Source: an uncultured Acidobacteriota bacterium
Lineage (GTDB): Bacteria > Acidobacteriota > Vicinamibacteria > Vicinamibacterales > UBA2999
Length of the DNA stretch: 64,000 bases
NCBI GenBank assembly: GCA_963709325.1
Contig: CAVPVV010000003.1
Coordinates: 2,561,147 to 2,625,146, forward strand
Direction: 5' to 3'
A program made the position numbers and the translations under genes. The notes beneath the pieces were generated by a model that ran no database searches, was not told where the DNA came from, and was given only the letters and a program-made list of their open reading frames with translations. Shown one piece after another: positions 1-60,190 of the stretch (the first letter of the stretch is position 1; every line of letters starts with the position of its first letter).

Positions 1-2072
1 GTCTCGGTGCCCGCGAACAGCACGCTCGGGTTCTTCGGGTGCTCCTTCACCACGTTGATCCAGCCAACCTTCGGCAGCGCATCGGAGAGGGTCTTCCAGG
101 TCTGGCCGAAGTCGCGGGAGACGAACAGGTAGGGTGCGAAGTCGTCGCTCTCGTGCCGTTCGACCGAGACATAGACGGTGCCCGCGTCGCGATGCGAGGG
201 CTCGACGCGGCTGACGCGTCCCCGCTTCGCCGCCAGGTTCGGAACGCGCGAACTGACGTCGGTCCAGGTCTTTCCGCCGTCGCGCGACAGCTGCACGAGC
301 CCGTCGTCGGTACCGGCCCACAACACGCCGGCCTGGACTGTTGATTCCGCGAGAGTGGTGATGGTCCCCCAGAACGACACGCCGTCGTTGTTGGCGAGCA
401 CGTCGCGCGACGGTTTCACGCCCATGATCGTCAGCTCGTCGCGGTTCTCACCGCGCGTGATGTCGGGCCCTGCCGTCCAGGTGTCTCCGCGATCAGACGA
501 ACGGAAAACGCGGCTGCCGCCGAGGTACAGCGTCTTGGAGTCATGCGGCGAAATCACGATCGGCGTCGTCCAGTTGAAGCGGTAGGCCGGTTCGCCGGCG
601 GGCGCCGCCGGCTTGATCGGTTTGCGATCGCCGGTCGGACGATGGAAACGCGAGATGGTGCCGTCCTGCGACTCCGTGTAGATGGTGTCAGGGTCGTTCG
701 GATCGACCTGCGCGTACATGCCGTCGCCGGTGTTGATCTGCACCCAGTCGTCGTTGAGGATGCCGAGAAAGTGGCGGGTCGCGGTCGGGCCGCCGAACGA
801 GTGGGTGTCCTGCAGCCCGCCATATACGTTGTAGGGCGTCGAGTTGTCCACGCTAATGCCGTAGAACTGGCCGATCGGGAAGTTGTTGACCTTGTCCCAC
901 GCGATGCCGCCATCGAACGTGAAGTACAGGCCGCCGTCGTTTCCGAGAATCAGGTGCTTCGGGTTGGCGGGATCGATCCACAGAGCGTGGTGATCTCCGT
1001 GGACGCCGACGTCGTACGTCGAGCTCATCGTGTCGTTGGCGCCGGCCCGGCCGGTAACCGGATCCGAGAACGTCCGGCCGCCGTCGGTGGACATGAAGAA
1101 CGACGCGCCGAGGATGTAGATCCGCTGGTCGGTCGTCGGGTCGATGTGAATCTTGCTGTAGTACATCGGCCGCGGGTTGACGTTGCTCATCTTGCGCCAC
1201 GTCTCACCGCCATCGTCGGAGCGGTAGGTCCCGCCCTCCTGGCGATGCTCCACGGTCGCGTAGAGCACCTTGGGGTCCCGCCGGTAGATGGCCAGCCCGA
1301 TCCGGCCGACCGTGCCCGAGGGCAGGCCGGTCGTCAGATGGGTCCAGGTGCGGCCGCCGTCGGTCGTTTTGTAGATGCCGCTGCCGGCGCCCCCGCCGTT
1401 GTAGCCCCACGCCGCGCGACGCCGCTGATAGGCCGCGGCATACAGCGTCTGCGGATTCGACGGATCCATCACCATGTCCACGAAGCCGGTGTCCTGGTCG
1501 ATGAACTTGAGGTTCGTCCAGGTGCGGCCGCCGTCAGTGGTCTTGAATACGCCGCGCTCGGCGTTCGGGCCCCACAGGTGGCCGAGCGCTGCGACATACA
1601 CCGTCTCTGGATTGGTCGGATCGATGAGCACACGCCCGATGTGCTGCGTGTCGCGCAGTCCCATGTGCATCCATGTGCGGCCGCCGTCGGTGGACTTGTA
1701 GACACCGTCGCCAAAGGTGGAGCTCTGGCGGTTGTTCGGCTCGCCGGTTCCGACCCAAACCAGGTCCGGCTGTGACGGTGTCAGCGCGACATCGCCGATC
1801 GAGGCAACGCCCTGCTTGTCGAAGAGCGGCGTCCAGGTAATCCCCTGGTTCGTCGTCTTCCAGACACCGCCGGACGCGGCCCCCACGTAGATCGTCGACG
1901 GATTGCGTTCGTCCACGGCGACGTCGTCGATACGTCCGCCCATCACGGCCGGTCCAATCGCGCGCCAGGCCAGTTGCCGGAGGCCGGCCTCGTCCAGGCG
2001 CTGCGCCGAAGGGGCGGCGGCAGCAAGCATGACCAGCAGCAGCGGCAGGGCGGAGCGTCGAATCTGGGACAT
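1..2072 (-). CDS. BNR/Asp-box repeat (sortilin/VPS10-type) secreted beta-propeller protein; partial, C-terminus lies beyond the window start
   Basis: Absent from the ORF track because it has no stop inside the window. My reverse-strand translation from the ATG (plus-strand 'cat' 2070-2072) gives the signal peptide [24 protein letters not shown]. It then shows repeated S/T-x-D-G-G-x-T-W motifs ([18 protein letters not shown] twice, [17 protein letters not shown]) and stays open down to position 3. Confidence 0.8.
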
Positions 2073-2109
2073 GGGCGCAGTGTATTCTGAGGGGCACGAG
2101 ATTGATCCC

Positions 2110-3588
2110 ATGGCTCACGAGACACACCTTCTGAACTACGTCGGCGGCACCTGGCAGCGGTCACACGCGCGCGACCACCTGCACGTCACCAATCCTGCTA
2201 CCGGCGTCGCGCTCGCCGAAGTTCCGCTGTCGCCGGCGGAGGAAGTGGACGCGGCGGTGTCCGCGGCCGCCGCGGCGTGGCCGGCATGGCGACGGGTGCC
2301 GGTCACGGAGCGGATCCAGTACCTGTTCAAGCTCAAGCAGAAGCTGGAAGAGGCATTGCCGGGGCTGGCGCGGACCATCACCGAGGAATGCGGCAAGACG
2401 CTGGCCGAAGCCGAGGGCGAGATGCGCCGCGGCATCGAGAACGTCGAAGTGGCCACCGCTGCGCCGACGACGATGATGGGGCTGATCAGCGAGGACATCG
2501 CCGCGGGCGTGGACGAGCTGATGATCCGGCAGCCGATTGGTGTGGTCGCGATCATCACGCCGTTCAACTTCCCCGGCATGATCCCGCTGTGGTTCCTGCC
2601 GTACGCGCTCGCGACGGGCAACACCGTGATCCTGAAGCCGTCGGAGAAGACGCCGCGGACGATGGCCGCAGTGATGCCGATTCTGGATGACGTGAAGCTG
2701 CCGAAGGGCGTCGTGAACATGATTCACGGCGGCCGCGAGACGGTGGAGGCGATTTGCGATCACCCGGGGATCAAAGCGGTGTCGCTCGTCGGCTCGACTG
2801 CGGCCGCGAAAGCCGTCTACGCGCGGGCCACCGCGAACGGCAAGCGCGCCCAGTGCCAGGGCGGCGCAAAGAACCCGATCATCATCCTGCCCGACGCCGA
2901 CATGGATATGACGACGCGGATTGCCGCCGACTCGGCCTTCGGCTGCGCCGGCCAGCGGTGCCTGGCGGCGTCGGTGGCGATCACCGTCGGCGAAGCGAAG
3001 GATCACTTCATTCCCCGGATCGCCGAGGCAGCGGTCGCTCGGAAGGTCGGCAACGGACTCGAGCCGGGCATCGAGATGGGCCCGGTGATCAGCCTTGAGA
3101 GCCGCACGCGCATCAGCGGTCTCATCGACGAGGGCCTCCGCGAAGGCGCGCGCGCGATCGTAGATGGACGGCAGACGAAGATCAGCGGCGGCGAGAACGG
3201 CTTCTTCGTCGCGCCGACGGTCCTCGAAGGCGTGCAACCCGGCTCGCACCTGGCCCGCACCGAGGTATTCGGACCGGTGCTGAGCGTAATGCCGATGGCG
3301 ACCGTGGACGAGGCGATTGCCTACGTGAACAGCCAGGCCTACGGCAACATGGCGTGCGTATTTACCCAGAGCGGCAACGCCGCGCGGCGGTTCCGCTACG
3401 AGGCTGAAGTCGGCAACGTCGGCATCAACGTCGGCGTGGCCGCGCCGATGGCCTTCTTCCCGTTCTCCGGCTGGAAGGAAAGCTTTTTCGGCGACCTGCA
3501 TGCGCAAGGGTCCGACGCGATCGACTTCTACACCCATAAGAAGGTGGTGGTCGAGCGCTGGCCCGCGGAGTGGACTCGCAAGTTTTGA
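2110..3588 (+). CDS. mmsA: Methylmalonate-semialdehyde dehydrogenase (CoA-acylating), ALDH superfamily
   Basis: Same frame as ORF 1903..3588. The internal ATG at 2110 gives [15 protein letters not shown], a typical N-terminus. Catalytic Cys context is [10 protein letters not shown], and the C-terminal [15 protein letters not shown] is typical of the MMSDH subgroup. Confidence 0.85.
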
Positions 3589-3595
3589 GGCGTGT

Positions 3596-3839
3596 CCATT
3601 GCCGATTGAGGATTGACGATTGACGATCTACTGACGATTAGGTGATCGGCGGATTGTGCGATTCGATTGACGATTGCGATATTGATCCAAATCGCCCATT
3701 GATCCAATGGACGATTCTGTCAATCGCCATTGAGGCAATGCGTCATTGAGCCAATGCGCCTATCACCAATTGAATGGCGCAATCCTCAAATCGTGAATCG
3801 TCAATGAATCGTCAATCGCCAATCCTCATTCGTCATTGG
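3596..3839. repeat. Imperfect ~240-bp palindrome built from heptamer-periodic CGATTGN (left arm) / NCAATCG (right arm) units; family copy 1
   Basis: Left-arm gaggattgacgattgacgat is nearly the reverse complement of right-arm atcgtcaatcgccaatcctc. The termini (CCAATGACGAATGAGGATTGGCGATTGACG...) are about 80% identical, by eye, to those of the element at 38827-39191. It lies between the convergent stops of mmsA and the DUF3037 gene, and supplies the last codons (..SNDE*) of the latter. Confidence 0.8.
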
Positions 3840-4236
3840 ACGCAGCGCGTCCGCGCCGCACCACACGTTCCATCAAGTGCTCCAGGCAGGCGGCAGGATC
3901 GGTTGTGCGCCCGGTGTGCACCTCGGAGGGCTGGATGATGGTGCTGCGCGGGGCGACGAGCCAGCGGAACCGGCCGCGCAAGGGAAGGGCGCCGATTGGG
4001 CCGGCCTCCGGCCCACCCTTGCAGACCACGGGAATCACGGCCAGGTTGCTGCGGACCGCATCCATGTCCACCGCGGGATCGATGGCGCGGATCAGCGCCT
4101 CGTCCACCTCGATGCGAGCGTCGAGGAAATCGCTGTCGGCGCAGGACAGGATGACGCCGACGTTGATCCGTTCGCCGCGATCGACTCGAGGCACGACCCG
4201 CACGATCGCGTAGTCGTAGGTGTATTCAGCGGACAC
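3826..4236 (-). CDS. DUF3037 domain protein
   Basis: 136-aa ORF. The N-terminus YDYAIVRVVPRVDRGERINVGVILSC matches my recollection of the DUF3037 signature. It overlaps the upstream HipA-like gene by 11 nt. Confidence 0.65.
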   Translation of the reverse strand: MSAEYTYDYAIVRVVPRVDRGERINVGVILSCADSDFLDARIEVDEALIRAIDPAVDMDAVRSNLAVIPVVCKGGPEAGPIGALPLRGRFRWLVAPRSTIIQPSEVHTGRTTDPAACLEHLMERVVRRGRAASNDE

Positions 4237-5002
4237 GCGCCGCCTCCTCCACGAACTCGCGCGGCGGTTCCAGCCGCTCGCGCAGATAGCGCCGGTAGCC
4301 GTCCCGGGCCTGGTCGGCGGTCAGCCCGGCGGCGGCATCCTCGAGCCACTCTCCCGGCACCGCCTCGAGAATCGCGTCGACCACGTCCGGCGTCAGCGTC
4401 GCGGTCATCTTTTCGTCCACGTCGCGCAGGTGACGAGCGCGGCGGAGCAGCACGTGATCCTTGATCGCCGCAAACCGGCTGCGGGCGCGAGCGTTGACCG
4501 GCCACTCGGGCGCGTGATGGACGTAGAGTGTGCTGCCGTGGTCGATCAGCCACGGCTTGCGATGCCACATCAGCATGTTCGTATTGCGCGCGGTTCGATC
4601 CACGTTGCTGACGAGCGCGTCGAACCAGACCACCTTCGAGGCGAAGTCTTCGGCGACGGCATGGACCACGGGATCGAACGTCACCGAGCCGGGCAGGTAA
4701 TCGAGCGCCATGTTGAGACCGGCGCTGTCGTGGATGAGTGCGTGGATCTCCGGGTCCGGTTCGGTTCGCGAGAGGTCGCGATCGAGCGTCGCCAGCACGA
4801 TCTCCGGCACCGGCAGGTCGAGCGCGCGTGCGATTTCGCCGGCAATCACCTCGGCAACCAGCGCCTTCGCACCGTGCCCGGCGGCCCTGAACTTCAGCAC
4901 GTACATGCCCTCGTCGTCGGCTTCGACGATGGCCGGGAGCGAACCGCCTTCGCGGAGCGGCGTGACGTAGCGAGTGACGGCAATCGTCCGCAGAACCGGC
5001 AC
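4226..5002 (-). CDS. HipA-like (HipA_2-type) Ser/Thr kinase family protein
   Basis: 258-aa ORF. It has a kinase catalytic-loop-like VSNVDRTARNTNMLMW and a downstream LIDHGS motif. This family is the usual partner of DUF3037 genes. Confidence 0.6.
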   Translation of the reverse strand: MPVLRTIAVTRYVTPLREGGSLPAIVEADDEGMYVLKFRAAGHGAKALVAEVIAGEIARALDLPVPEIVLATLDRDLSRTEPDPEIHALIHDSAGLNMALDYLPGSVTFDPVVHAVAEDFASKVVWFDALVSNVDRTARNTNMLMWHRKPWLIDHGSTLYVHHAPEWPVNARARSRFAAIKDHVLLRRARHLRDVDEKMTATLTPDVVDAILEAVPGEWLEDAAAGLTADQARDGYRRYLRERLEPPREFVEEAARVR

Positions 5003-11122: not shown

Positions 11123-11140
11123 GGGTGGATCCTTGACCAG

Positions 11141-11235
11141 GTGAGAAGTGAGCGGTGGAAATGAGAAGCAAGCCCGAAGCTGGAATTACCGCCTGTTACT
11201 TAGCTTCTCACCTCTCACTTCTCGCTTCTTACTTC
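11141..11235. repeat. GTGAGAA-family purine/pyrimidine-asymmetric hairpin repeat (copy 1 of 3)
   Basis: Left arm gtgagaagtgagcggtggaaatgagaagcaagc pairs with right arm gcttctcacctctcacttctcgcttcttacttc. The right arm encodes the last codons of the anti-sigma gene (..SEVRSEK*). Confidence 0.75.
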
Positions 11236-11955
11236 GGAGACGGTGAACTTGTATTCCAGCGACGCTGACCCGGGCGCGCCGGAGGTTCCGACGGACAAGG
11301 TGTAGCGGCCGGCAGAGTCCAGCGCTGATGCGGGAATCAGCAGCAGCAGCGGCGTGCCGGGGGGAGGGGCCGCAGCGGTTCCGGACGCCACCGACACGCC
11401 GTCGGCGGCGCGGAGATCATACGTCAGGCTGGCGCCGGCGGCGACGGCACCGAGATCGACGGCCAGGGCGAGGACGCCGGCGGCTGGCCGCGTCAGCGTC
11501 GGCTCCGTCCCGCGCGAGGCCCCTCGCAGCGTGACCGGCGACAACACGGTCGGACCGATGATCTGCTCGCGAAGAGCGGGAACCACCCACAGCGCCTGGT
11601 AGCCGGCGACGAGGGTGAGCATCGCCGCGGCGGCCCATGGCAGCGCCGAACGCCACACCTGGGGCGTGGCACGTGGGACCTGGGGCTTGAGGCTTGGGGC
11701 CTGGGGCCTGGAGAGGTCCTGGGGTTTCGGGGTCTTGAGGTCTTGGGGGCGTGACGTCCTGGGGGCTTGGACTCCCGACTGCGGCAGAAGTCCCGCCTTG
11801 ACACCTTCCTGCATGAGGGCACCGGTCCTCACGTCCTCGGCGCAAATCGGGCAGGCGAAGAGATGTTCCTCGAACGCGAAGCGCTCGAGCTCCGGCATGT
11901 CGTCGAGCAGATAGCGCTCGGCGGCGTGCTTCTCGACGGCCTGCTCGTGTGTCAC
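11215..11955 (-). CDS. Anti-sigma factor, zf-HC2 type, single-pass membrane protein
   Basis: 246 aa. It has the HxxxCxxC motif (HLFACPICAEDV), a Pro-rich linker, one TM segment (WAAAAMLTLVAGYQALWVV) and a ~120-aa extracytoplasmic domain. Its start overlaps the sigma gene stop by 4 nt. Confidence 0.8.
   Translation of the reverse strand: MTHEQAVEKHAAERYLLDDMPELERFAFEEHLFACPICAEDVRTGALMQEGVKAGLLPQSGVQAPRTSRPQDLKTPKPQDLSRPQAPSLKPQVPRATPQVWRSALPWAAAAMLTLVAGYQALWVVPALREQIIGPTVLSPVTLRGASRGTEPTLTRPAAGVLALAVDLGAVAAGASLTYDLRAADGVSVASGTAAAPPPGTPLLLLIPASALDSAGRYTLSVGTSGAPGSASLEYKFTVSEVRSEK
11659..11714. repeat. Tandem heptamer array (CTGGGGC-like x8, phase-preserving) embedded in the anti-sigma CDS
   Basis: Plus strand reads CTGGGGC GTGGCAC GTGGGAC CTGGGGC TTGAGGC TTGGGGC CTGGGGC CTGGAGA. 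It is translated on the minus strand as RPQAPSLKPQVPRATPQ. Confidence 0.7.
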
Positions 11956-14944: not shown

Positions 14945-16101
14945 ATGGCGTTCGAGACCACCCGTCGGGACATGTTGAAGACCAGCCTTGCCGGCGGCGC
15001 GGCCTGCTGGCCGTGCCGGAGTGGGCCCTGCCCACGCTGGCCCAGGGCGAAACGGTGGTGCCGTTTGCCGACTGGCCGGACAAGTTCGATCCGAACCCGG
15101 CGCCCGACCGCCGGCTGTTCGACAGCCGCACTATCAGCGGCCCGATGACGCCGAAAGACCAGTTCTTCACCACCCAGCACTACGGGCATCCAGTGGTCGA
15201 CCCGGCGACCTATCGGCTGAAGATCTCGGGGCTGGTCAACTCGTCGATGTCGCTCTCGCTCGACGAGGTCCGCAAGATGGGCAATGCCGAGATGATTCTC
15301 GGCTTCGAGTGCTCGGGCAACCGCCGCCCGCTGCAGGGCCTGATCGGCAACGGCAAGTGGACCGGCGTGCCGCTGAAGACCGTGCTCGACAAGGCCGGCC
15401 TCAAGCCGAACGCGCGCGAGATCGTCTTTTTCGGCGCCGACCGGGGCCAGGAGGAAGTCGAGTTCCGGGCCCAGAAGTTCAACGTCGAGCAGCAGTACGG
15501 CCGCAGCATGCCGCGCGACAAGGCGCTCACCACCGAGGCCTTCCTCGCCTACGCGCTCAACGGAGAGCCGCTCACCCGCCACCAGGGCTCGCCGCTCCGC
15601 CTCATCGTCCCCGGCTGGTACGGCGCGCCGAACGTCAAGTGGCTGTCGGAGATCCACGCCCAGGAGGATCAGTACCTCGGCAAGTTCCAGGCCCGCTGGT
15701 ACCGCACGCTGAAGGGCGAGATGATCGACGGCGAGATGAAGTGGGTGGAATCGGCCATCACCCACCTGCAGCTCAAGTCGTTCGTCGCCCGGGTGACGAA
15801 GGCCGGCAATCAGTACAAGGTGCTGGCGGTGGCGCTCAACGACGGCACACCGCTCAAGACCGTCGAGCTGAAGGTCGACGACGGCCCGTGGCAGGCGATG
15901 ACGGCGGACCCATCGACCAACGCGAAGTACGGCTGGAAGTTCTACAACTACACGTGGAACGGCACCGCCGGTGAGCACACGCTGGTCTCGCGGGCCACCG
16001 ACGCCAACGGCCAGGTCCAGCCAACTGAGAAGGATCTCGAGAACAAGAAGACGTTCCTCGAGGACAACTCGCAACAGCCACGCAAGCTGACGCTCGCCTG
16101 A
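14945..16101 (+). CDS. Sulfite-oxidase-family molybdopterin oxidoreductase (SorA/YedY-like) with Tat signal; apparent 1-nt frameshift near 14993-15003
   Basis: AAGGAG lies 8 nt before the ATG at 14945. The Tat signal MAFETTRRDMLKTSLAGGAA is in one frame. The catalytic part (ORF 15013..16101; Mo-ligand Cys context GFECSGNRR, plus dimerisation domain) is in another frame. The junction would read ...GGAA(G)LLAVPEWALP. Confidence 0.8.
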
Positions 16102-16209
16102 AGTGAGAGGTCAGAAGTGAGAGGTGAGAGGCACGGACAGTGCTCTCTGGCCTCTCACTTCTTTCTTCCTGCTTCGCTTCTAACTTCTCACCTCTCATTT
16201 TCACTTCGG
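16101..16209. repeat. GTGAGAA-family hairpin repeat (copy 2 of 3) filling the gap between convergent stops
   Basis: Left arm aagtgagaggtcagaagtgagaggtgagagg pairs with right arm cctctcacttc...cttctcacctctcattttcacttc. It could act as a bidirectional terminator. Confidence 0.75.
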
Positions 16210-36117: not shown

Positions 36118-38862
36118 CTATTTCGGCGACCCGGGCGCGGAGGCGGGGGCCTGTCCGAGGCTCAGGAGATTCGCCATCAACCGGAACGCGCCATCGGTGC
36201 CGGCCGGCAGCTGACGCCACAGGCCCAGGCCGATGTAGATCCAGCGTCCCTTGCCGACTTCCGCTTCGACCAGCGCGCCGCGCTTGGTTCCTTGGTTGTA
36301 CGCGAACGGCTCCTCGAACTCGAGCAGGTCCTTGATGTGCGGATCGCGATCCTGGGCGTCGAAGAAGTAGAGCCCGCGTTCCTGGACCCAGCCGGTCCAG
36401 TCCGCTCGCCCGATCTGGTTTGGTGTGTTGAACACCGGATTCTTCGGTTCGAGCAGACGCACTTCGGCGTTCTCGTCGGTCACACGCTCGCGGCCGACCT
36501 TACCCGGGTAAGGGGCGTACTGGGCATCGTTGAACTCGAACTTGTTGTAGTTGACGATCACGGTGCCGCCGGCGGCCGCGTAGTCGAGCAGCCGCTGGTT
36601 GTAGGCACGCAGATCGAGGCGCCGCTCGTAGGCACGGACGCCGGTCATCACCACGTCGTATTTCGTCAGGTCGCCCCAGGCCAGCTCCTCGGGCCCAATC
36701 ATCGACACCGACACGCCGAGCTGTTCGAGCGCTTCGGGAATCTGATCGCCGACGCCCATCACGTAGCCGATCTTCAGGTTCGGCTTGACCGCGACGTCCA
36801 CGGCCTTCGCCGTCACCTCGGGTGCAACCAGCACGTGCCGCCGCGTGGTGTGCGGGTATTCGACGAGTTGATAGCCCTGCGCGTAGGTGGCACCGCCGTC
36901 GCGAACGACCGCCTTGATCGAGAACTGGCTGCCGCCTGGCTTCGCCGCCGCGGACGCCAGCATCGGCGACGGCGGGGCGTCGACGAAGAAGCGCACGGTC
37001 ATCGCCTCGTCCTCACGCGAGAACGACACCGGCTGGCTCGCCGGCGTCGCGCGCCAGCCCTGCGGCAGCTCGAGAGCGACCTCACCCCTGGCGGCGCCCC
37101 TCGCGTGGTTCAGCACGGTGACGCGCACGTCCTTGCGCGTGCCGCGGGCGTTGGCCGGCGTCGCGCGGCTTGGCACGATCAACGTGTCGGGGCTGGCCGT
37201 CACCGCGAAGGCGGGCACGACGTGCAGCTCGGCCCGCTTCTCGCCGCTGAACAGGTTGCCTTCGGAACGCGCCTGCACCGGGATCGTCACCGGGAATTCC
37301 ACGCCGGCGACCGCGAAGGTGAACGTCGCGGTGAAGGGCGTCGGGCGGAATGGCAACCCGAACGGCACGTCCGGATCGAGGATGAAGCGCGCCGCGTCTT
37401 TCGCGTACTTGAAATGTGCGGCTGTCGGACGCGCGGCGGCAGGGATGACGCCGCCCTTCTCCGTTGGCTGATCGAAGCCGTTCAACGTCCGCGACTTCAC
37501 TTCCACGGGCGTGGTCCCGCGAGCCGCGGCGATCAATTGCACGCCCACCTGCTGGCCCGGCGTCACCACGCCGTCGTCGGCGACTGCGTCGATGCGCATG
37601 TCGGTGGCGGCGACAATCGCGTTGATGAACTGCGATTCCTTCTGCGCCAGGCGGAAGTCGATCTCGAACGTGCCGCTGTCGGACAGCCCCATGCCGGCCA
37701 GGCTCTGACGGAGCGTGCGCACCGCGGTCAGCCCGGCGGCCAGCGGAGCAACGGTGGCGGCGCTGGTTTCGGCGCCGAGTGCGCGCCGTGCGGCTTCGAC
37801 GTGACCGGCAATCGTCGCGAGCGATTGGGTCAGCGCGGCGGGCGGATTGGTGCCAGCGTAGGCAGCCAGCGATCCGAGGCTGACGTCGATACCGTCGAAC
37901 GGCTCTTTCTCGGCGCGATCAACGCCGTCAGGCAGGACGGTGTCGCGCAGCCGGTAGGAGCGCGGACCGGACATGAACCCGCCCTCTCCCGGCAAGGGCA
38001 GGAGCTGCGACATGCCCTGGCACTTGTGCATGCTGCGGGCTTCACCCTGCAGCTCGTTGTAGGTGCGGCCGAGGACGTGGTCGTAATCCGCGCCGCCAGT
38101 GAACATCAGCGGCTTCGACGCACCGGGGCCGCTGAACTGCTGAGGGCCACCGCGTCCGCCGCCCGGACCGAAGCCCGCGGTGTAGTAGAACTTGGTCGCC
38201 TGCCAGGGGCGGAGCCCGTCCTTGATCTGCTCGGGGAACTGATTCGGATCCGCGGCCGCGCGAAACGCTTCGGCGGTGAGCCGCGAGGAGGTCTGGTGAT
38301 GCTGTCCGCCGCCCTCACCGTCGAACACGAAGCCGACGATGACCTGGGGGCGGATCGTGCGGATCATGCGCACGTAGTCGCCGAGGATCTCCTGGTGGCC
38401 CCACTTTTCCAGCGTCTCCTCGACGCTGAACGAAAAGCCGAAATCGACCGCGCGCGTGAAGTACTGCTCGGCGCCATCATAGCGGTGGGCCGCCAGCAGC
38501 TCCTCGGTCCGCAGCACCGCAAGCGCCTCGAAGAGCTCCGGGCCGATCTCGTTCTGTCCGCCCTCTCCGCGGGTCGCCGTCACCAGGGTAGTCCGCATCC
38601 CCTTGCCGTGGCCGTAATAGGCCAGCATGGCGTTGTTCTCATCGTCGGGATGCGCCGTCGTCATCATGAGAGTCCCGACCGTGTCCAGCTTCCGCAGCGC
38701 CAGTTCGACAGCCGGTACTCCGCGCAGCGCCGCCACCGGCTGCAACTGGTGCTGCGCGGTGGGCGCCTCAATCAGCGCCGCGACCCCCAGAGTGGCTATA
38801 GCCAGGCGCTGCGCGAGGCGCCGCGTCCAATGACGATTGGTGATTGCCGATTGACGATTCAT
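36118..38862 (-). CDS. Large PIG-L (LmbE-like) family deacetylase with C-terminal ThuA/GATase1-like domain
   Basis: Contains the AHPDDENNAML motif and a signal-like RRLAQRLAIATLGVAALIEAPTAQ. The listed start at 39018 runs through the repeat element; ATG 38862 (MNRQSAITNRHW) is the more likely start. Confidence 0.75.
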   Translation of the reverse strand: MNRQSAITNRHWTRRLAQRLAIATLGVAALIEAPTAQHQLQPVAALRGVPAVELALRKLDTVGTLMMTTAHPDDENNAMLAYYGHGKGMRTTLVTATRGEGGQNEIGPELFEALAVLRTEELLAAHRYDGAEQYFTRAVDFGFSFSVEETLEKWGHQEILGDYVRMIRTIRPQVIVGFVFDGEGGGQHHQTSSRLTAEAFRAAADPNQFPEQIKDGLRPWQATKFYYTAGFGPGGGRGGPQQFSGPGASKPLMFTGGADYDHVLGRTYNELQGEARSMHKCQGMSQLLPLPGEGGFMSGPRSYRLRDTVLPDGVDRAEKEPFDGIDVSLGSLAAYAGTNPPAALTQSLATIAGHVEAARRALGAETSAATVAPLAAGLTAVRTLRQSLAGMGLSDSGTFEIDFRLAQKESQFINAIVAATDMRIDAVADDGVVTPGQQVGVQLIAAARGTTPVEVKSRTLNGFDQPTEKGGVIPAAARPTAAHFKYAKDAARFILDPDVPFGLPFRPTPFTATFTFAVAGVEFPVTIPVQARSEGNLFSGEKRAELHVVPAFAVTASPDTLIVPSRATPANARGTRKDVRVTVLNHARGAARGEVALELPQGWRATPASQPVSFSREDEAMTVRFFVDAPPSPMLASAAAKPGGSQFSIKAVVRDGGATYAQGYQLVEYPHTTRRHVLVAPEVTAKAVDVAVKPNLKIGYVMGVGDQIPEALEQLGVSVSMIGPEELAWGDLTKYDVVMTGVRAYERRLDLRAYNQRLLDYAAAGGTVIVNYNKFEFNDAQYAPYPGKVGRERVTDENAEVRLLEPKNPVFNTPNQIGRADWTGWVQERGLYFFDAQDRDPHIKDLLEFEEPFAYNQGTKRGALVEAEVGKGRWIYIGLGLWRQLPAGTDGAFRLMANLLSLGQAPASAPGSPK

Positions 38863-39191
38863 TGATGATTCGCGATTGGGAAATTGCGGCATTCGATTGG
38901 TGATTGAGGGAGTGGCGATTGGATCATTGACGAATGCTGATTGGTGATTGGGATTGGACGACAAGCCGCGGCCGAGACCGAGATCGCGCTTGGCCCGGCG
39001 AGAGAACGGTGCGAACACGGGGCATCAACTGAGGCGCTGGTTCGGCCAAATTGCCAATCAAATCGCCAATCGCCAATCGTCATTCGCCAAATCGCCAGTG
39101 CCCCAGTGCAGCAATCGACAATCGAATGCCGCAATCCCAAATTGCCAAGCATCAATCGATCGTCAATCGTCAATCGGCCATTCGTCAATGG
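38827..39191. repeat. CGATTGN/NCAATCG heptamer-periodic inverted-repeat element, family copy 2 (arms ~130-145 bp, ~88-bp unique core)
   Basis: Left arm 38827-38957 and right arm 39046-39191 are mutually complementary (for example gattgggaaattgcggcattcgattg versus caatcgaatgccgcaatcccaaattgcc). The termini are homologous to those of copy 1. Confidence 0.8.
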
Positions 39192-39207
39192 ACGCGGCAA
39201 CGGCGGC

Positions 39208-52094: not shown

Positions 52095-52189
52095 GGAAGT
52101 GAGAAGTGAGAAGTGAGAAGTGAGAAGCAAGAGGCGCGAGGAAATCGGTGGGTCTGCTTCTCACCTTTCACCTCTCCTTTCTCATCTCG
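52095..52189. repeat. GTGAGAA-family hairpin repeat (copy 3 of 3) with a perfect (GTGAGAA)x4 tract
   Basis: Left arm ggaagtgagaagtgagaagtgagaagtgagaagcaagagg pairs with right arm ctgcttctcacctttcacctctcctttctcatctc. Confidence 0.8.
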
Positions 52190-52218
52190 GGCCGCAGACT
52201 GCCTCTTCCTGCAGTCCG

Positions 52219-57390: not shown

Positions 57391-58858
57391 TCGGGAGTCG
57401 GGAGTCGGGAACCGGGAGTCGGAAGAGCGCTTGTCTGGTGCTCGTCCTGGGCATCACGCTGATCGCGGGTCCGGCGCCCGCGCAGCAGCCCGATCGATCG
57501 AAGCCGCCTGCGATCGGCCCGGCGCCGGCGCTGAGGCTGCCGTCAGTCGAGAAAGGGACGCTCTCGAACGGCGTTCCTGTGTGGGTCATCGAGCAGCATC
57601 GAGTGCCGCTGGCACAGGTCAACGTGATCATGCGCGGTGGCAGCAGCCTCGACCGAAGCGGGCGTTACGGCATGGCCAGTCTCGTCGCGGCGATGCTCGA
57701 TGAAGGCGCCGGAGCGCGCTCCGCTCTCGATCTTGCTGACGCGGTGGATTTGCTGGGCGCGGATCTCTCGACCAGCAGCACCTTCGACTACTAGCGCCGT
57801 GCGGCTCTCGGTGCCGGTCAAGAACCTGGCGCCCGCGCTGGGGCTCCTCGCCGACGTCGTACTTCGCCCCACCTTCCCCGCAAACGAGCTTGAGCGCTTG
57901 AAGAAAGAGCGGCTCTCTGCGCTCGTCCAGGCGCGGGACAACCCGGCCCAGATCATCGGATACGCGTTTCCGCGTGTGGTGTTCGGGCCGACCTATCGCT
58001 ATGGCACGCCGGCCTCCGGGCTGGGTCCGGTGATCGAGGCGATCACCGCCGACGAGGTCCGCGCGTTCTACAAGGAGCACTACACCTCCGGCAACGCGAC
58101 GATCGTCGTCACCGGTGACGTGACACTGGCGAGCGTGAAGGCGGAACTCGACAAGGCGTTCACCGGCTGGCCGTCGAGCGGCGCGCGCGGGACGACCGCA
58201 GCGCTGCCGGTTGCGCCCCAGTTGACCAAGCGCGAGATCGTGCTGGTGGACAAGCCCGGGAGCGGCACAGTCGCAGATCCGCATCGGGTGGGTCGGCGTG
58301 CCCCGCTCGACGGCCGATTACGCCACGCTGCAGGTGTTGAACTCGCTGCTTGGCGGGTCGTTCGGATCACGGCTCAACCAGAACCTGCGCGAGGAACACG
58401 GCTACACCTACGGTGCGGCGTCGATGTTCGACATGCGGTCGTCCGCCGGCCCGTTCCTTGCCACTGCCGGCGTGCAGACCGACAAGACGGCCCCGGCGCT
58501 GCACGAGTTCTTCGTCGAGCTCGAGGGCATCCAGAAGCCGATTCCGGCAGCTGAGGTCGAGAAGGCGAAGAACTACGTCGCACTCGGTTTCCCGGCGGAG
58601 TTCGAGACCACGCGCGCGCTCGCACAGAAGCTCGAGGAGCTGATCGTCTACAACCTGCCCGACGACACTTACCAGTCCTTCTTCGGCGCGGTCCAAAAGG
58701 TCACCCTCGCCGAGGTCCAGAAGGCCGCCGCCCGCTACATCCAGGCCGACAAGCTGGCCATCGTCGTCGTCGGTGATTTGAAGGCGATTGAGCCGGGCAT
58801 CAAGGCACTCAACCTCGGTCCGATTCGCGTGGTACCGATCGAGGAGTTCTTCAAATAG
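57387..58858 (+). CDS. M16 family peptidase, non-catalytic partner subunit; two frameshifts (~57792 and ~58265)
   Basis: Three collinear ORF pieces (57387..57794, 57637..58554 middle part, 58298..58858) join as ...STSSTFDY|SAVRLSVPVKNL... and ...VLVDKPG..|QSQIRIGWVGVPRSTADYATLQVLNS.... There is no HxxEH motif. The start overlaps the upstream stop (ATGA). Confidence 0.75.
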
Positions 58859-60111: not shown

Positions 60112-60127
60112 CTCTGGCGGCTTTCTA

Positions 60128-60190
60128 CCTTCTGCCTTCTGCCTTCTGCCTTCTGCCTTTTGCCTTTGCCTGCCTTTGGCCTTGACTTTG
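60128..60190. repeat. (CCTTCTG)x4 tandem heptamer followed by degenerate CCTTTTG/CCTTTGG units
   Basis: Read directly from the sequence. It is pyrimidine-rich on the plus strand, has no complementary arm nearby, and lies between the flavoprotein stop and the metalloprotease gene. Confidence 0.8.

Follow-up and report, generated by a model that had tools for sequence, protein, structure and literature searches.

The 64,000-nt stretch of DNA analysed here (the window), part of contig CAVPVV010000003.1 from an uncultured Acidobacteriota bacterium of the Vicinamibacterales, carries between an aldehyde dehydrogenase gene and a DUF3037 gene a palindromic element without an open reading frame (ORF), copy 1, at 3592..3843 and with no strand assigned. 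With a probability that we place at roughly 60%, copy 1 is a gene-less derivative or partner, similar to MITEs (miniature transposable elements with inverted repeats), of a hairpin element resembling the intervening sequences (IVS) of 23S rRNA, and it belongs to a palindromic family specific to the Vicinamibacterales. The gene-less elements and the elements of about 0.8 kb that bear an S23p gene are, on the evidence of their arms, one family. The long stem topped by an S23p gene is the architecture of the 23S rRNA IVS, and the flagged element behaves like an intergenic passenger of the MITE/REPIN type which reshapes gene ends (REP, repetitive extragenic palindrome; REPIN, REP doublet forming a hairpin).

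Copy 1 comprises 252 nt with a GC content of 0.47, compared to 0.68 for the whole window, in agreement with the A/T-enriched island of about 240 bp in GC-rich DNA described in the initial annotation. The limits given there, 3596-3839, identified the element correctly but were a few bases too narrow at both ends, as deduced from the fold, the GC content and the inverted repeat I1. Folding also confirmed the proposed single long hairpin: copy 1 forms one unbranched, imperfect stem of 99 pairs from 3592:3843 inward to 3716:3722, with the apex at 3716-3722. The minimum free energy as RNA was -121.9 kcal/mol versus -76.8 +/- 5.1 kcal/mol for 200 dinucleotide shuffles (z = -8.85), none of which folded as well (0/200), and the fold as DNA reached -67 kcal/mol (z = -6.9). 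The arms are composed of NGATTGN heptamers on the left and NCAATCN heptamers on the right; ATTG occurs nine times in the left half and four times in the right, and CAAT once and eight times, respectively. Period 7 was also obtained with Tandem Repeats Finder at 3598-3627 and 3780-3835. The earlier description of the arms as CGATTGN and NCAATCG units holds for their outer parts and fails for the inner ones, which consist of 8-nt units containing CATTG/CAATG and not of clean heptamers. The left conserved terminus (terminal inverted repeat), 3592..3639 on the plus strand, reads GTGTCCATTGCCGATTGAGGATTGACGATTGACGATCTACTGACGATT and matched the nhmmer terminus profile, built on a 48-arm alignment, with E = 1.3e-13. 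The right conserved terminus, 3796..3843, reads GCGTCCAATGACGAATGAGGATTGGCGATTGACGATTCATTGACGATT on the minus strand (E = 9.8e-15) and has 85% identity with the left end of copy 2.

Copy 2, 38823..39195 (373 nt, no strand assigned), has the same termini as copy 1 around a centre of about 85 nt (~38958-39040) that is GC-rich and lacks the repeat. It lies between two minus-strand genes, a TonB-dependent-receptor-like gene (stop 39208) and the next gene downstream, and its RNA fold reached -206 kcal/mol (z = -11.8). The homology between the ends of the two copies that had been claimed from inspection was borne out by BLASTN, which aligned them over 82 nt at 85.4% identity (E = 3.6e-22, 95 bits), far above the top score of 32.8 bits found when copy 1 was shuffled 200 times and compared with copy 2; the two strings originally quoted were located at the reverse complement of ~3795-3838 and at 38827-38870. 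The left terminus of copy 2 (38823..38870, plus strand) and its right terminus (39149..39195, minus strand) matched the profile with E = 3e-16 and 1.6e-10, and the profile recognized exactly four arms in the window, those of copy 1 and copy 2. An ortholog of copy 2, 89.4% identical, was found in L027 (L numbers denote fetched loci), within a block of 7.8 kb that is itself 89% identical.

The range of the family was searched with an exact 18-mer common to both copies in one genome per species, covering 185,579 species. The 18-mer matched 37 genome loci, 22 of which contain the element, the remainder being low-GC chance matches without the repeat; nine contigs with the 18-mer derive from a single metagenome-assembled genome (MAG). 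The 22 element loci are Vicinamibacterales or Acidobacteriota MAGs, save three loci of two otherwise titled records with 66-70% GC, namely L005 (Actinomycetota) and L020 and L029 (Bifidobacteriaceae). These labels look wrong; a check of the flanks, which covered L005 and L029, showed orthology of L005 to the Vicinamibacterales locus L028 and of L029 to L034. From metagenomes 113 loci were retrieved with a 17-mer, and 36 of these had terminus-profile matches (E < 1e-6); the family terminus had no match in 2.9 million viral contigs. Taken over the loci recovered, the family appears to be restricted to the Vicinamibacterales. The paired-arm search of MAGs and metagenomes furnished 51 element sequences, or 40 after the merging of near-duplicates and reverse-complement duplicates, and the gene-less members are mostly 150-380 nt long.

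The consensus of the family terminus, deduced from 48 arms (both ends of 24 elements), is about 48 nt long and reads GCGTCCATTGAYGATTGATGATTGGCGATTGACGATTCATTGA, with nhmmer E-values for the family termini of 1e-10 to 1e-17. It represents a fixed order of differing heptamer variants which recurs at unrelated loci; inward of it there are looser ATTG/CAAT repeats and 7-8-nt CATTG/CAATG units in variable number. In 24 members the self-match at lag 7 was 0.50 in the arms versus 0.26 in flanking DNA, with echoes at lags 14 and 21. The initial annotation had spoken of a dispersed family and not just low complexity, and the 22 genome loci, the 51 element sequences and the same variant order at unrelated loci support that view; the 18-mer search showed that the element is not unique to the two loci of the window. 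The density of two copies in the 64-kb window and three extra ones in 176 kb of fetched flanks suggests of the order of a hundred copies on the 4.6-Mb contig, a figure extrapolated from density and not a census.

All copies examined lie between protein genes. The junctions of about 17 independent sites were read by eye, which is not a statistical gene call; an automated calling of gene context by the GC content at third codon positions (GC3) of open frames was dropped after it miscalled the known DUF3037 side. The genes on either side are convergent at roughly half of these sites and in tandem at the other half, and none of the ~17 is placed between divergent starts. A stop codon was almost always located 0-30 nt from one element end and was sometimes supplied by the element. 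Two unusual members were also recorded. L001 4726-4830 has a solo left arm followed by GGGGGATT three times and then directly by a gene end, and might represent a copy in decay or one half of an element. L017 4560-4740 contains between its arms a GC-rich, coding-like insert of ~190 nt (75% GC3 in one frame), with no Pfam match and no S23p similarity, possibly a captured gene fragment.

The comparison of orthologous sites showed gain and turnover. The spacer between the DUF3037 and aldehyde dehydrogenase genes has 26 nt and is free of the element in MAG JBFWQE01 (L039) and in L040, and is occupied in the window, L038 and L041; JBFWQE01, empty at this site, has members of the family at other places (L008, L034). 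Two species share an occupied site in several cases, which counts against rapid turnover everywhere. An htpX-like gene at ~55.4-55.9 kb, considered as an empty-site control for L029/L034, was rejected as a paralogue and not an ortholog. Between L010 777-940 and L022 7250-7415 the flanks are ~99% identical, and the element aligns at 91.6% when flipped versus 83.7% in the forward orientation, while the left junction of L010 has an extra 23 nt holding the terminus fragment GGTTCATTGAC; the difference reflects an in-situ flip or a replacement/re-insertion. Moreover, the distance between arms from different sites was smaller within genomes than between them (0.173 vs 0.225; 0/2000 permutations, p < 0.0005). 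The arm variant GTCAATTGTCAATTG is private to MAG ABC2.44, where it is found in the gene-less L019 and L036 and in the S23p-bearing L156, and the left-arm interiors of L017 and L018, both from one MAG, are nearly identical. The family is thus copied or homogenised within genomes.

Long members with an S23p gene

L132 and its ortholog L116 (metagenome) are family members of 0.83-0.88 kb with the same termini and with arms of 130-200 nt. Their core contains an intact ORF of 124-135 aa (135 aa in L132, 124 aa in L116). The L132 ORF was assigned to PF05635 "23S rRNA-intervening sequence protein" (1.3e-13) and to TIGR02436 "four helix bundle protein" (3.7e-18), and the nearest solved relative of the L116 ORF is 2RLD. 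The S23p homologues fetched had 50-87% protein identity, and inverted ATTG/CAAT arms enclose the gene at every S23p locus with DNA, these loci falling into three independent genomic sites. The first site adjoins a gamma-glutamyltranspeptidase gene (L116, L132, L156, L157), the second a Na/sulfate symporter gene (L161, L164 and L158, the last of which retains just its left arm) and the third a NAGPA-domain gene (L162 and L163, with short arms). The S23p gene was located in the loop in L116, L132, L156, L157, L158, L161, L162 and L164. The dN/dS values of the S23p ORFs, 0.1-0.5 at dS around 1 or more, indicate purifying selection. Copy 1 contains no S23p sequence in a six-frame hmmsearch, and no S23p gene was found in the window.

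The palindrome itself seems to be maintained at deeper divergence. In 38 non-redundant elements, 93.2% of the cells at the variable heptamer positions of the two arms pair, and 47 cells with a double change were counted versus 23.7 +/- 4.1 in shuffles (0/500 reach this number) and at most 9 when the partners were slid. In four orthologous S23p-bearing elements compensatory change was detected in 13/57 pairs versus 4.0 +/- 1.7 (0/500), their arms being 77-87% alike within an element and 68-80% between the orthologous arms of different species. The two arms therefore covary, the palindrome being kept either by selection or by arm-to-arm conversion. Fold energies and G:U counts of both strands gave no consistent pattern of strand asymmetry as a sign of RNA-level constraint, the transcribed strand of copy 2 and of L027 having a slightly poorer fold.

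In either of the convergent transcripts copy 1 would form an imperfect RNA duplex of ~100 bp, which, by analogy with IVS stems, could act as a barrier at the 3' end and as a substrate of RNase III. The short gene-less copies would then be the non-autonomous partners of the S23p-bearing ones. Knowledge of the S23p family goes back to 1993 and to rRNA intervening sequences; to our knowledge S23p is not a known recombinase, and we know of no function for the four-helix-bundle S23p/Avd-like proteins outside retroelements. It is tempting to speculate that the ATTG-heptamer arms are the nucleic-acid target of the pentameric S23p/Avd protein, and that the S23p gene and its hairpin are self-propagating, with the gene-less hairpins, copy 1 included, as passengers. 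We consider this extension doubtful; if true, it would provide the first function for the S23p family and would explain the resemblance of IVS to mobile DNA. The tie between S23p/Avd-like genes and an abundant repeat co-evolving within each genome nevertheless offers a concrete candidate for the binding substrate, and the S23p-bearing hairpin family offers a possible origin for ribosomal intervening sequences. Avd, which is the accessory protein in diversity-generating retroelements, is a relative of the PF05635 proteins (PMC10053308).

Weighing the explanations

Several results weigh against the reading of copy 1 as a gene-less derivative or partner of an S23p-bearing hairpin. No S23p remnant was detected in the gene-less interiors by BLASTN, TBLASTX or six-frame hmmsearch, so that these interiors give no proof of an origin from the long form by deletion; a hairpin that already existed may instead have acquired the S23p gene. 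The 120 S23p homologues listed include none on the 4.6-Mb contig carrying the DUF3037 protein of the window, and a close S23p gene may therefore be missing from this genome. A regular-expression motif scan of the fetched loci in six frames, a weak test, found no transposase or RAYT/Y1-like ORF near the copies. Target-site duplications, to which the initial annotation had drawn attention, were sought by comparing the empty site (L039, a diverged genome) with occupied ones; no direct repeat was seen, and since the flanking GC/GCG is self-complementary, a possible duplication would be indistinguishable from an extension of the terminal repeat. With no transposase and no unambiguous target duplication, mobility has to be argued from the distribution of the copies. 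The divergence between copy 2 and its L027 ortholog (10.6%) is close to that at the third codon positions of the neighbour gene (9.9%, 90.1% identity), so that short-term constraint is weak. Between close orthologs the substitutions mostly break pairs, with 0-1 compensatory events, the compensatory signal appearing at deeper divergence only, and the complementarity of the arms could stem from arm-to-arm conversion instead of selection. The role of the stem at the RNA level is an analogy, and promoter and terminator consensus scans gave nothing, with no terminator-like site in 3300-4200.

The family could also consist of ordinary MITE/REPIN-type elements mobilised in trans, either by the transposase of an insertion sequence (IS) with the same terminal repeats or by a Y1 enzyme of the RAYT/TIRYT type, S23p being a mere passenger. 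The terminal inverted repeats, the small size, the lack of an ORF, the many dispersed copies and the insertion polymorphism are all expected of such elements; the extragenic position by gene 3' ends, the lack of a clear duplication and the persistence at orthologous sites are typical of REPINs; and the termini begin with G-CGTC-C, which recalls CGTC-tagged REPs. Acidobacteria, moreover, have Y1 transposases flanked by long inverted repeats (PMC3733652). However, the motif scan, weak as it is, disclosed no HUH/Y1-like ORF near the fetched elements, which at 150-380 nt exceed the 20-40 nt of REPs and the about 100 nt of REPINs. Furthermore, S23p is the only gene found inside members, which holds for three independent sites and for proteins with as little as 50% identity, and the S23p-bearing copy shares the private arm variant of its genome. 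We regard mobilisation in trans with S23p as a bystander as unlikely. A third explanation, in which the host retains the element at each site for gene regulation, as a bidirectional terminator or a functional RNA specific to that locus, the resemblance among loci arising from a shared regulatory protein or RNase, would account for the very stable stem, its exact placement at gene ends, the retention of positions across species and the covariation of the arms. Several results speak against it. The whole window has no Rfam match at the gathering threshold, and a permissive scan of 3450-3990 found nothing within the element, its sole match with E <= 1, snoRNA sR53 at 3910-3967 (E = 0.41), being attributed to chance. 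There is no U-tract or terminator-like site, and the lack of a T-run after either stem end of copy 1 is not what an intrinsic (Rho-independent) terminator would have. The near-neutral divergence with pair-breaking changes between close orthologs, the site that is empty in a relative, the in-situ inversion with unchanged flanks and the unrelated functions of the neighbour genes also argue against host-maintained RNAs, which we consider improbable.

The growth of microsatellites in situ, with heptamer arrays arising by local slippage and the palindrome by local inversion or duplication without movement between loci, agrees with the dominance of period 7 among the tandem repeats of these genomes, represented by several unrelated units, and with interiors that vary in length and unit; slippage has been invoked for heptamers in other phyla (PMC4692102). 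Counted over 240 kb of Vicinamibacterales DNA, regions of period 7 number 21 and those of periods 5, 6 and 8-11 number 1-6 each, the units TTCTGCC, GGTCTTG, GGAGTCA, CGGGAGT and GAAGTGA being unrelated. Nevertheless, the same ~48-nt variant order ending in GCGTCCATTG is present at dozens of unrelated loci in several species, an orthologous site is empty in a genome having the family elsewhere, and the similarity of arms within a genome crosses loci. Since local slippage would not recreate a terminus of fixed variant order at dozens of loci, microsatellite growth is largely refuted for the termini and, as an account of the whole element, is very improbable; slippage plausibly explains the variable interiors and not the shared termini. 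On balance the preferred reading remains that of copy 1 as a gene-less member, derived from or partnered with the IVS-like, S23p-bearing hairpins.

Gene ends and neighbouring repeats

The location of copy 1 between convergent genes, noted initially, was corroborated by synteny and Pfam. The aldehyde dehydrogenase gene (1903..3588, plus strand; PF00171 in orthologous loci) ends with a stop codon at 3586-3588, 3 nt before the element, and the DUF3037 gene (3826..4236, minus strand; ORF with PF11236 homologues) runs into it from the other side. Positions 3843-3826 on the minus strand, GCG TCC AAT GAC GAA TGA, belong to the terminus of copy 1 and at the same time close the DUF3037 frame with five codons (A S N D E) and a TGA stop. 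The comparison of tails at empty and occupied sites showed that DUF3037 homologues without the element, from more distant relatives, have 128 aa and end in ...VVRR*, whereas those with the element, from closer relatives, have 130-137 aa and tails such as SNDE*, SIGD* and TIED*, read from the terminus. Copy 1 has replaced the native stop of the DUF3037 gene and added a short C-terminal tail; the earlier proposal that the element gives the stop-proximal codons was correct, as judged from the ORF and from the element-free homologues. A 258-aa gene (window 3826-5002 for the pair; PF20613 HipA_2 in orthologous loci) overlaps the DUF3037 gene by a few bases, and the DUF3037/HipA_2 pair is syntenic in all relatives fetched (L038-L042).

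In copy 2 a minus-strand ATG (38857-38855) lies in the left terminus, within the conserved CAATGAATCG, and it is the sole in-frame start upstream of the signal peptide of the downstream gene, likewise in the ortholog L027. With no other in-frame start before the signal peptide, copy 2 may supply the start codon and ~12 N-terminal codons, and is probably, as far as the reading frame can tell, the donor of the start codon to this gene. The product is of the 900-aa class and has an AHPDDE (PIG-L-like) motif after the signal peptide. The family therefore rewrites gene ends, by the stop and tail in DUF3037 and probably by the start codon at copy 2, and it will fragment assemblies made from short reads and mislead gene callers. 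This concerns the Vicinamibacterales, which are among the most abundant soil bacteria and whose repeat content is undescribed.

Other repeats were observed in the same DNA. A second, unrelated hairpin family, composed of GAAGTGA/GAGGTGA units and their complement (TCTCACT), is present in the window at 11137-11235, 16100-16200 and 52096-52190; these hairpins of about 100 nt each are located at gene ends and have RNA fold z values of -4.4 to -5.5, and an exact 15-mer of this family was absent from the 42 loci examined. Non-palindromic heptamer arrays occur in the window (60123-60171, 57391-57422, 11658-11769) and elsewhere (L005 5438-5493, L013 4631-4686, L034 7306-7381), with the units TTCTGCC, TCGGGAG, CCTGGGG, GGTCTTG and CCCGACT. 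The segment 49920-50021 of the window contains within 100 nt three copies of a REP-like palindrome of 16-19 nt (TAGGGGGACAGTCCCCCTA and GGGGGACTGTCCCC variants), and the intergenic segment 27530-27575 contains a 17-mer in tandem, AT-rich and with palindromes inside it (CTAACCGGTTAGTTAAT CTAACAGGTTAGTTAAT), which looks like a duplicated operator site.

Comparison with known systems

IVS with an S23p ORF occur in Leptospira, Coxiella, Brucella and relatives of Xanthomonas, and we know of no mechanism for their mobility. The family shares with the 23S rRNA IVS the terminal complementary sequences that form an enclosing stem and, in its long members only, the PF05635 gene in the stem loop. It differs in that the copies are inserted between protein genes and not in helix 9, 25 or 45 of 23S rRNA (the window has no rRNA, and no tRNA or tmRNA either), that the stem has ~100 pairs in copy 1 compared to 28 bp in Coxiella, and that most copies, copy 1 included, have no ORF. 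RNase III cleaves the stem of the Coxiella IVS, in which the S23p ORF is adjoined by a variable number of heptamers in tandem; this IVS has come under suspicion of being mobile, with its ORF as an aid to mobility (PMC4990558).

With the REP/REPIN-RAYT systems the family has in common extragenic palindromes at gene 3' ends without obvious target duplication, persistence at orthologous sites with genome-specific sequence variants, and CGTC at the very end of many termini (GCGTCC). The differences reside in the single long stems of 150-380 nt, three to ten times longer than the 20-40 nt of REPs and the ~100 nt of REPINs (PMC3733652), in the heptamer construction, in the S23p-like associated gene and in the lack of a Y1 (HUH) transposase near the copies by motif scan of the fetched loci. 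Acidobacteria are known to encode Y1 transposases (TIRYTs) flanked by long inverted repeats (PMC3733652). The likeness to MITEs comprises terminal inverted repeats, conserved over ~48 nt at both ends in 24 elements, and a small, non-coding nature with many dispersed copies (51 element sequences), but the motif scan of fetched loci revealed no parent IS with a transposase and the long members carry a PF05635 gene. The Correia/NEMIS elements of Neisseria and the ERIC elements of enterobacteria are MITEs forming RNA hairpins with reported RNase processing. They resemble the family in being 100-400 nt long, intergenic and co-transcribed, in their terminal inverted repeats and in their ability to donate start or stop codons; they differ in having defined target duplications (TA for Correia), none being visible in the family, and in not being heptamer-periodic.

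The cyanobacterial short tandemly repeated repetitive (STRR) sequences, with which copy 1 was initially compared, and the heptamers of Xanthomonas and Nostoc are similar in unit length, intergenic position and variable copy number. Some arrays of the GGGAATC / GGGGAYT heptamers in Xanthomonas and Nostoc are inverted between convergent genes and capable of forming stem-loops, and the over-representation of heptamers there was ascribed to polymerase slippage (PMC4692102). The family, however, has the unit NGATTGN without G-runs, belongs to another phylum and forms a discrete element with fixed termini and a conserved variant order; the STRR comparison therefore stands as a resemblance in period and not as membership, since unit and host differ and the termini are fixed. 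Full-text literature searches gave no equivalent description for Acidobacteria, as the initial annotation had supposed. By the defining features of STRR, REP, classical MITE and rRNA IVS, the family belongs to none of these, and the closest structural relatives of the flagged element are the IVS-type hairpins with an S23p gene.

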